A stretch of DNA of 64,000 nt from Escherichia coli (lineage in GTDB: Bacteria > Pseudomonadota > Gammaproteobacteria > Enterobacterales > Enterobacteriaceae). This document shows, piece after piece, positions 16,601 to 17,422 of this stretch; the first letter of the stretch is position 1; every line of letters begins with the position of its first letter. The notes beneath the pieces are model-generated. The model saw nothing but the letters and a program-made list of their open reading frames with translations. It did not search any database and was not told the origin of the DNA. The translations under genes and the position numbers were made by a program. Location of the stretch: the NCBI RefSeq assembly GCF_003019035.1, contig NZ_CP027447.1; one strand, written 5' to 3'.

Positions 16601-17422
16601 GAGCCACTGGTCGAGAGCCGCTATCTCTACGACCCGCTGGGCCGCCGGACGGGGAAACGGGTGTGGCGTCGCGAGCGTGACCTGACGGGATGGATGTCGC
16701 TGTCGCGTAAACCGGAGGTGACATGGTACGGCTGGGACGGCGACCGGCTGACAACGATACAGACCGACACCACACGTATCCAGACGGTATACCAGCCGGG
16801 AAGCTTCACGCCACTTATCCGTATCGAAACAGAGAATGGTGAGCTGCATAAAGCGCAGCGGCGCAGTCTGGCGGAGAAGTTGCAGCAGGAAGGAAGCGGG
16901 GACGGTCACGGCGTGGTGTTCCCGACTGAGCTGGTGCGGCTGCTGGACAGGCTGGAGGAGGAAATCCGGGCAGACCGCGTGAGCAGTGAAAGCCATGCGT
17001 GGCTGGCACAGTGCGGGCTGACGGTGGAACAACTGACAACACAGGTAGAACCGGAGTACACACCGGCACGCTCACTGCATCTGTATCACTGTGACCACCG
17101 TGGACTGCCGCTGGCGCTCATCAGCGAAGACGGCAATACGGCGTGGAGCACGGAATATGACGAGTGGGGAAACCAGCTTAACGAGGAGAACCCGCATCAT
17201 CTGTACCAGCCATACCGCCTGCCGGGGCAACAGTGCGATGAGGAGTCGGGACTGTACTATAACCGTCACCGATACTATGATCCGTTACAGGGACGGTATA
17301 TCACCCAGGACCCAATCGGGCTGGAGGGGGGATGGAATTTATACCAGTATCCATTAAATCCTGTTATTGATACCGATCCGCTGGGTTTGTGGGTTTGTGG
17401 GTTTTTGCGCTTCCAGCTATAG
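13643..17422 (+). CDS. rhs: PAAR-Rhs protein, RhsA/B/C-type core, truncated 9 codons after the core-end DPxGL motif
   Basis: N-terminus [11 protein letters not shown]...[14 protein letters not shown] (PAAR); YD repeats; core end [28 protein letters not shown]; frame broken by 8-bp duplication at 17385..17400. Confidence 0.85.

Follow-up and report, generated by a model that had tools for sequence, protein, structure and literature searches.

An 8-bp slippage duplication has probably disarmed an Rhs toxin gene in one clonal lineage of Escherichia coli and left its immunity gene intact

We analysed a 64,000-nucleotide stretch of Escherichia coli DNA (contig NZ_CP027447.1; hereafter, the window) in which an Rhs gene is interrupted exactly between its core and its toxin domain. 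The first-pass annotation had offered, as one reading, that slippage had recently inactivated a polymorphic toxin by mutation, and the comparisons below bear this out, since the undivided 1375-aa protein is encoded in the same haplotype and diverged homologues of the gene are in frame. We consider it highly probable that one clonal lineage recently had its toxin disarmed by a slipped-strand duplication and has kept the immunity gene. The locus itself is a polymorphic toxin gene of the Rhs (YD-repeat) type, borne by a small integrase island at a tRNA-Asn gene. The mutation is an ordinary recent slippage, a known kind of event in a known system, and involves no new mechanism. The features of the locus, all on the plus strand, are as follows.

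7873-7893, + strand: attL, the last 21 bases of the tRNA-Asn gene (asnT, 7813-7888) plus flank (ARAGORN; 21-mer repeat)
7948-9312, + strand: tyrosine recombinase (P4-type integrase) of the island (ORF list; SCU-301 RefSeq annotation; Pfam)
13643-17422, + strand: truncated Rhs core ORF, 1259 aa (translation; Pfam on the identical product; N-terminal scan)
17382-17404, + strand: tandem array of TGGGTTTG, 2.9 copies (Tandem Repeats Finder, period 8, 100% matches)
17383-17389, + strand: G_GGT_TTG heptamer, in phase with the core frame (frame scan)
17385-17392 (for example), + strand: the extra, frameshifting unit, exactly one 8-bp gap in alignment with single-copy alleles
17389-17778, + strand: toxin-frame ORF, annotated as a 129-aa hypothetical protein (translation)
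17782-18084, + strand: candidate immunity gene, 100 aa, intact, starting 3 nt after the toxin stop (translation)
18588-18608, + strand: attR, direct repeat of the tRNA-Asn 3' end (identical 21-mer)

The plus strand of the window at 17380-17410 reads gctgggtttgtgggtttgtgggtttttgcg and contains gtttgtgg twice in tandem (17385-17392 and 17393-17400), as the first-pass annotation had it and as Tandem Repeats Finder also reports. The doubled 16-mer occurs only once in the window. By itself the repeat is statistically unremarkable, because the program lists nine small tandem repeats of similar score in the 64 kb. Its significance lies in its position exactly at the frame break and in the existence of single-copy alleles that differ by precisely the 8-bp unit (1.9 copies of the array in these alleles, 2.9 in the window). 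A terminator-like hairpin formed from the repeat (17375-17395) was rejected as a candidate, as it has three G-C pairs and relies on G-T pairs; the scanned region held five terminator-like sites, compared with about two in shuffled sequence.

Translation confirmed the layout that had been annotated around the repeat. The core ORF stops nine codons past DPLGLW (stop codon 17420-17422), and the final nine residues, VCGFLRFQL, are foreign to the intact protein. The toxin ORF lies one base back from the core frame, that is, in the -1 or, equivalently, the +2 frame that had been assigned to it. When one unit was removed in silico, the two parts joined in a single ORF of exactly 1375 aa (the earlier estimate was about 1375), the C-terminal part of which is the 125-aa toxin domain (17401-17778, ending in TEYNWK). 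This domain is indeed of low GC content, 0.40 compared with 0.60 in the core, and that of the immunity gene is 0.38. The candidate immunity ORF is, as claimed, intact.

The 1259-aa product begins with an N-terminal DUF6531 (Pfam, E 1.4e-18), followed by YD repeats, the RHS core domain, DPLGL, 10 residues and the stop. Pfam lists RHS_repeat, TEN_YD-shell and RHS (PF03527) for the identical product, the PxxxxDPxGL motif of the core-toxin boundary is present in the translation, and the core falls in the same 90%-identity protein cluster as E. albertii Rhs proteins of 1388-1429 aa. Of the earlier label 'PAAR-Rhs', the second half thus stands on the Pfam domains; the first half is unconfirmed and reflects a resemblance only, as the Pfam PAAR_motif matches the N-terminus at non-significant E values of 0.21 and 0.64.

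Rhs or YD-repeat polymorphic toxins of Enterobacteria, of the E. coli RhsA-D type, are exported with the type VI secretion system. In common with these toxins the locus has the DUF6531 N-terminus, the YD repeats, the RHS core domain and DPLGL, as well as a toxin tip that is variable and low in GC, with a small candidate immunity gene downstream. Unlike them, it lies on an integrase island at tRNA-Asn without a vgrG next to it, encodes a protein with a non-significant PAAR motif, and has its toxin tip out of frame, the product being a shell without cargo; the toxin is fused in frame to the core in the allele of E. coli GCA_903974165.1 and in homologues, and not in the window. The closest complete genome, that of strain SCU-301, has a type VI secretion cluster (tssA-M, hcp, vgrG) at aspV, and tssH, vgrG and a second Rhs of this locus are flagged as frameshifted. 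The tssH gene of SCU-301 has a single-base deletion; in near-identical clusters of other assemblies TssH is intact, at 919 aa. Because of the SCU-301 cluster and the intact TssH of its close counterparts, the Rhs toxin plausibly had a delivery machine.

Alignment of homologues divides the toxin domain into a hydrophobic linker (residues 1-44) and a domain of about 80 aa, which has an invariant His, an invariant Lys, conserved DLCGC and CKG motifs and four conserved Cys. The AlphaFold2 model reaches a pLDDT of about 80 for residues 45-125. We found no solved structure resembling the toxin tip, and the Pfam match of the domain to Ntox33 (PF15533) is weak; the tip is an uncharacterised small domain with a faint resemblance to Ntox33 only. 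The hydrophobic first 44 residues (17401-17532), modelled with a pLDDT below 50, are conserved in Salmonella homologues, and may be a membrane-interacting or translocation segment. The 100-aa ORF follows the toxin domain in every related locus, and identical copies of its product are found on 101 contigs. This candidate immunity protein matches no family significantly, its hits being to DUF4279 (E 0.019) and, far below the cut-off, to NF007301.

The Rhs island is 10.7 kb long, is bounded by the 21-bp direct repeat and lies between mtfA/asnT and a yeeJ-like adhesin gene. Pfam assigns Arm-DNA-bind_3 and Phage_integrase to a product identical to its integrase. Similarity of the window to orphan loci of another species ends at 18614, by attR. 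Related islands, at about 90% identity, are present in about 200 complete E. coli genomes. In E. coli G3/10 such an island, at another tRNA-Asn gene, encodes an undivided 1346-aa Rhs followed by a small immunity-like gene, and so shows the normal architecture. The use of other tRNA-Asn genes by related islands in other strains, G3/10 being one example, was a separate observation, as were near-copies of the 21-mer, with one mismatch each, at two of the three other tRNA-Asn genes of the window (33010-33030 and 37307-37327).

An exact-sequence look-up revealed the repaired 1375-aa protein itself, encoded on a 90-kb contig of E. coli GCA_903974165.1. Its Rhs locus occupies the same tRNA-Asn island in the same yeeJ context as in the window, and over 10.1 kb the two sequences differ by no mismatches and one 8-bp gap. 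We extended the comparison to a seven-way alignment of long loci (20.7 kb), which included GCA_903974165.1 and double-copy strains. Over these 20.7 kb GCA_903974165.1 differs from all double-copy strains by the indel and by one private SNP (window 9932); the other variable sites are the junction of an insert at tRNA-Ser and private changes of other strains. Beside tRNA-Ser, the differences between GCA_903974165.1 and the window are common to the double-copy strains that lack the window's insert. The copy number of the junction repeat thus varies among very close relatives, one compared with two in the same haplotype. The toxin and immunity sequences are otherwise identical between the intact and the frameshifted alleles, and the event is therefore recent. 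No SNP in the 20.7 kb of flanks is informative for rooting the indel. Because no SNP separates the two states there, the direction of change is unrooted for GCA_903974165.1, and its single copy may be either ancestral retention or reversion.

More distant loci bear on the ancestral state. A search with the 129-aa product matched a protein from a Logan assembly with an in-frame junction, and the DNA of this locus (L002), gctgggtttgtgggtttttgcg, has a single unit and exactly one 8-bp gap relative to the window. Two further loci of this kind were found, L005 and L006. The amn and shiA genes of the three loci share only 80% identity with the E. coli genes of the window, which places these loci in a more distant genome. 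The toxin-immunity module of L005 and L006 is an orphan, in frame and situated behind another Rhs with its immunity gene; the 5' end of L002 falls inside the core, and its fragment 'QMNEENPHH' is shared with the L005 orphan. In all three, from another species, the module is single-copy and in frame. Diverged Salmonella homologues, which read DPLGLWAFAIPAI... or DPKGLCIEDA..., also continue in one frame. Indeed, every homologue spanning the junction is in one frame, the split being confined to sequence-identical copies within one clone. The single copy in frame is thus the ancestral state, because both the modules of L002, L005 and L006 and the Salmonella homologues have it. The first-pass annotation had proposed comparing orthologues for single and double gtttgtgg, and GCA_903974165.1, L002, L005 and L006 all proved single-copy; the two-ORF arrangement that it had raised as a possible conserved state is not conserved, the diverged homologues being undivided without exception.

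Orphan rhs-CT/rhsI modules are known to recombine onto the main rhs gene (Poole 2011, PMC3150448; Koskiniemi 2014, PMC3967940). The module of the window resembles these, as L005 and L006 carry it as an orphan, in frame behind another Rhs, and as the similarity begins at 17222, about 160 bp upstream of DPLGL, within the conserved end of the core and in the zone expected for such recombination. It differs from them in that it sits on a full-length gene and carries the 8-bp duplication, which the orphans lack. The stretch comprising the module and the island end (17222-18614) is 98.5-99% identical to L002 and L006, and its identity to L005 is 95.7%, measured over a longer stretch extending deeper into the core. 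Set against the 80% identity of the flanking amn and shiA genes, the 98.5-99% identity of the module indicates that, as far as these alignments go, transfer of the module or the island would have been horizontal and recent. L005 has two Rhs loci, facing one another on either side of amn-shiA.

The duplicated allele is widespread. Searches of NCBI, ENA and UniRef records returned the identical 1259-aa product on 82 contigs in 90 index blocks, and toxin-frame ORFs derived from the duplicated allele of 129 aa on 55 contigs and of 127 aa on 28. The intact form is on one contig, and no products of 0, 3 or 4 copies are on record. A metagenome scan with a pattern that allowed one to four copies returned two contigs, both with two copies, and a scan of GTDB species-representative genomes for the junction with one to four copies returned no match. 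Among 5,426 complete E. coli genomes, one, that of SCU-301, matched the junction region at full length, with 100% identity. RefSeq annotates the locus of SCU-301 as an 'RHS element core protein' and two 'hypothetical protein' entries of 129 and 100 aa, and flags no pseudogene. The insert at 1-6715 of the window is missing from SCU-301, which has six differing sites in 32 kb. The loci designated L009-L012 and L016-L019 are 99.96-100% identical to the window in the same context, and over 23.8 kb the window is 100% identical to L018 and L019 (GCA_031300025.2 and GCA_031388365.1). Since its origin, the double-copy clone has diversified slightly, by a tRNA-Ser insert in a sub-lineage and a few SNPs. 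Taken together, these sequences point to one mutational event, inherited by a clone that has been widely sampled.

An artefact of sequencing or assembly, such that the second copy is absent from the real genome, had been put forward as what would overturn the duplication. SCU-301 does contain isolated 1-nt deletions (window 13619, and in tssH), and its assembly may hold indel errors. However, the same 8-bp form occurs in the 82 contigs from many independent projects and in two metagenome assemblies, and a perfect 8-bp duplication is an atypical error for short-read or long-read assembly; an assembly error is thus contradicted by the spread of the double-copy allele across independent sources, and we regard its probability as negligible.

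Two further observations were made on individual assemblies. Single-base deletions were seen in SCU-301 and in no other assembly, one in tssH ('frameshifted'; L022 34193-36951) and one lying 24 nt before the Rhs start; they are private mutations or else errors of assembly. The locus L014 (GCA_002510335.1), which aligns to window 13469-17699, has two copies; past window 17699 the contig runs on for 72 nt of unrelated sequence and ends, leaving a truncated toxin ORF of 117 aa (P0030). An insertion or some other further disruption could explain this truncation, as could an artefact at the contig end.

The following sequence of events would account for these observations. The ancestral gene would have been one ORF of 1375 aa, made up of a delivery or shell part, the DPLGL self-cleavage motif and the 125-aa toxin tip, and followed by the immunity gene. 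The single-copy junction already holds TGGGTTT twice, 8 bp apart, and direct repeats of this type are a classic substrate for slipped-strand mispairing, the source of tandem-repeat indels. During replication the nascent strand would have slipped back by one register and copied TGGGTTTG again, taking the array from 1.9 to 2.9 copies, and the eight extra bases would have shifted the toxin tip to the -1 frame. Ribosomes would then finish the shell, read nine wrong codons and stop, with DPLGL kept and the toxin domain unattached. In Rhs and Tc-toxin shells the toxin must share the polypeptide in order to be enclosed and delivered; because of this the expected product is an empty Rhs shell, a disarmed weapon, alongside an intact immunity gene. 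The event would have happened once, recently, in a clonal E. coli lineage, and have been inherited by all descendants sampled. We infer the slippage mechanism, the loss of toxin delivery and the continued usefulness of the immunity gene. The excess of the double-copy over the intact allele, about 80 to 1, could mean that one successful clone was sampled many times, or that the double copy confers a selective advantage.

Slipped-strand indels at short tandem repeats are familiar from the lacI CTGG x3 hot spot and from the contingency loci of pathogens. The array at the Rhs junction behaves like these, having gained exactly one unit in a perfect array with a frameshift as the result, and, as at short-repeat indel loci, both copy numbers occur in one haplotype. 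This raises the possibility of a reversible switch, in which the 8-bp array would toggle the Rhs between an armed (one copy) and a disarmed (two copies) state in the manner of a contingency locus, with GCA_903974165.1 as a revertant. The occurrence of both states with no separating SNP in 20.7 kb is what such a switch would produce, and a perfect repeat of 2.9 copies is mechanistically able to lose or gain a unit, as lacI CTGG x3 does. Nevertheless, a switch is unlikely: two states only are on record, in a ratio of about 82 to 1, with no products of 0, 3 or 4 copies, and the metagenome scan that allowed one to four copies found the 2-copy form only. In addition, the 2-copy state has been stable through the gain of the tRNA-Ser insert and of several SNPs. 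The array is also far shorter than the tracts of known phase-variable genes. Unlike contingency loci, it comprises 1.9 to 2.9 copies of an 8-mer in two states, with no evidence of high-frequency switching, and a long hypermutable tract with many states was not found here. If the array were nevertheless a reversible Rhs effector switch in a natural E. coli lineage, with the immunity kept throughout, which we think rather improbable, phase variation would act on the payload of a type VI effector instead of a surface structure. Literature searches for frameshifted or phase-variable Rhs genes gave nothing specific.

The remaining alternatives concern translation of the toxin tip from the split gene, by two routes that the first-pass annotation had left open. 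In the one, the 129-aa ORF would be translated on its own, from GTG 17389 or TTG 17395, and form an internal toxin-antitoxin pair with the immunity protein. Rhs toxin tips of Salmonella Typhimurium provide a precedent, since they are expressed from an internal promoter, P2, with a start 89 nt upstream of PxxxxDPxGL, and behave as type II toxin-antitoxin modules (PMC7043789). The window has the corresponding conserved stretch upstream of DPxGL (17216-17323), as well as the order of toxin and then immunity gene, and gene callers predict the 129-aa ORF. The stretch shares, however, only about 66% identity with the Salmonella P2 query (71 of the 108 columns are invariant), which is below the 80% cut-off used in that study (PMC7043789), and a promoter scan of 17000-17850 revealed no sigma-70-like site. 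Moreover, the Salmonella start codon is in the core frame, so that here translation from it would run into the stop at 17420, the frameshift severing the toxin from core-frame starts. Nothing like a Shine-Dalgarno sequence lies in the 20 nt before the only toxin-frame starts, 17389 and 17395, or in the 20 nt before the slippery heptamer, and a free toxin would have no export route. With neither a Shine-Dalgarno sequence nor a promoter-like site, separate expression has little support, and we judge it very unlikely.

In the other route, ribosomes would slip by -1 at G_GGU_UUG or at U_UUG (17404) and make some full-length Rhs, of 1379 aa, from a gene thus attenuated, perhaps by design. G_GGT_TTG is the only in-phase X_XXY_YYZ heptamer in the 49-nt overlap of the two frames (17371-17419), and the predicted product retains DPLGL and the whole toxin domain. 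To this extent the junction resembles the programmed -1 frameshifting of dnaX and of IS3/IS911, where such a motif in the correct phase precedes a downstream ORF in the -1 frame. Unlike in dnaX and IS3/IS911, however, the motif is of a weak class, the overlap is unconserved across homologues and there is no stimulatory structure: the downstream sequence folds no more stably than shuffled sequence (z = 0.23 for 91 nt, -0.47 for 221 nt). In E. coli the shifting of heptamers that lack a stimulator reaches at most about 10 times a background of 0.055%, mixed purine/pyrimidine codons such as UUG are poorer shifters, and the U_UUG tetramer reaches only 1.8-3.6 times background even with a pseudoknot (PMC4066793). 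Furthermore, the heptamer is made up of conserved DPLGL codons, the intact allele has it just as well, and the split arrangement is absent from all diverged homologues. Of the earlier suggestion of frameshifting, then, the in-phase heptamer stands; the weak motif, the lack of a stimulatory structure and the lack of conservation of the split count against it, and we consider such rescue most improbable. On the preferred reading of a recent, disarming slippage mutation, trace amounts of full-length protein might still arise from the double-copy allele, because an in-phase slippery heptamer exists.

The disarming mutation has practical consequences. The 'RHS element core protein' and the 'hypothetical protein' of RefSeq are halves of one toxin gene, an annotation that needs correction. 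The locus leaves the current understanding of Rhs systems unchanged. It offers a natural example of a contact-dependent weapon lost with the matching immunity kept, in which the armed sister allele is available for comparison, and so suits competition experiments.

Several observations were made elsewhere in the window. The insert at 1-6715, beside tRNA-Ser (6732-6821), contains an 823-aa YdfE-like ORF (2921-5392) and an integrase gene (5654-6679); it is present in L018 and L019 and absent from SCU-301 and from L015-L017. Downstream of the island, the yeeJ-like gene (18950-27007) encodes an Ig-like adhesin of 2660-2685 aa and has, at 22060-23355, overlapping internal repeats of about 689 bp with 89% identity. 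The metagenome contig L003 has 54 mismatches in this gene, possibly from mis-assembly of the repeats. Further along, coordinates mapped from the SCU-301 annotation place a cobalamin riboswitch at 41541-41715 (minus strand), upstream of cob genes, and a complete pdu operon, for the propanediol utilisation microcompartment, at 44526-58776; both are unrelated to the Rhs split.
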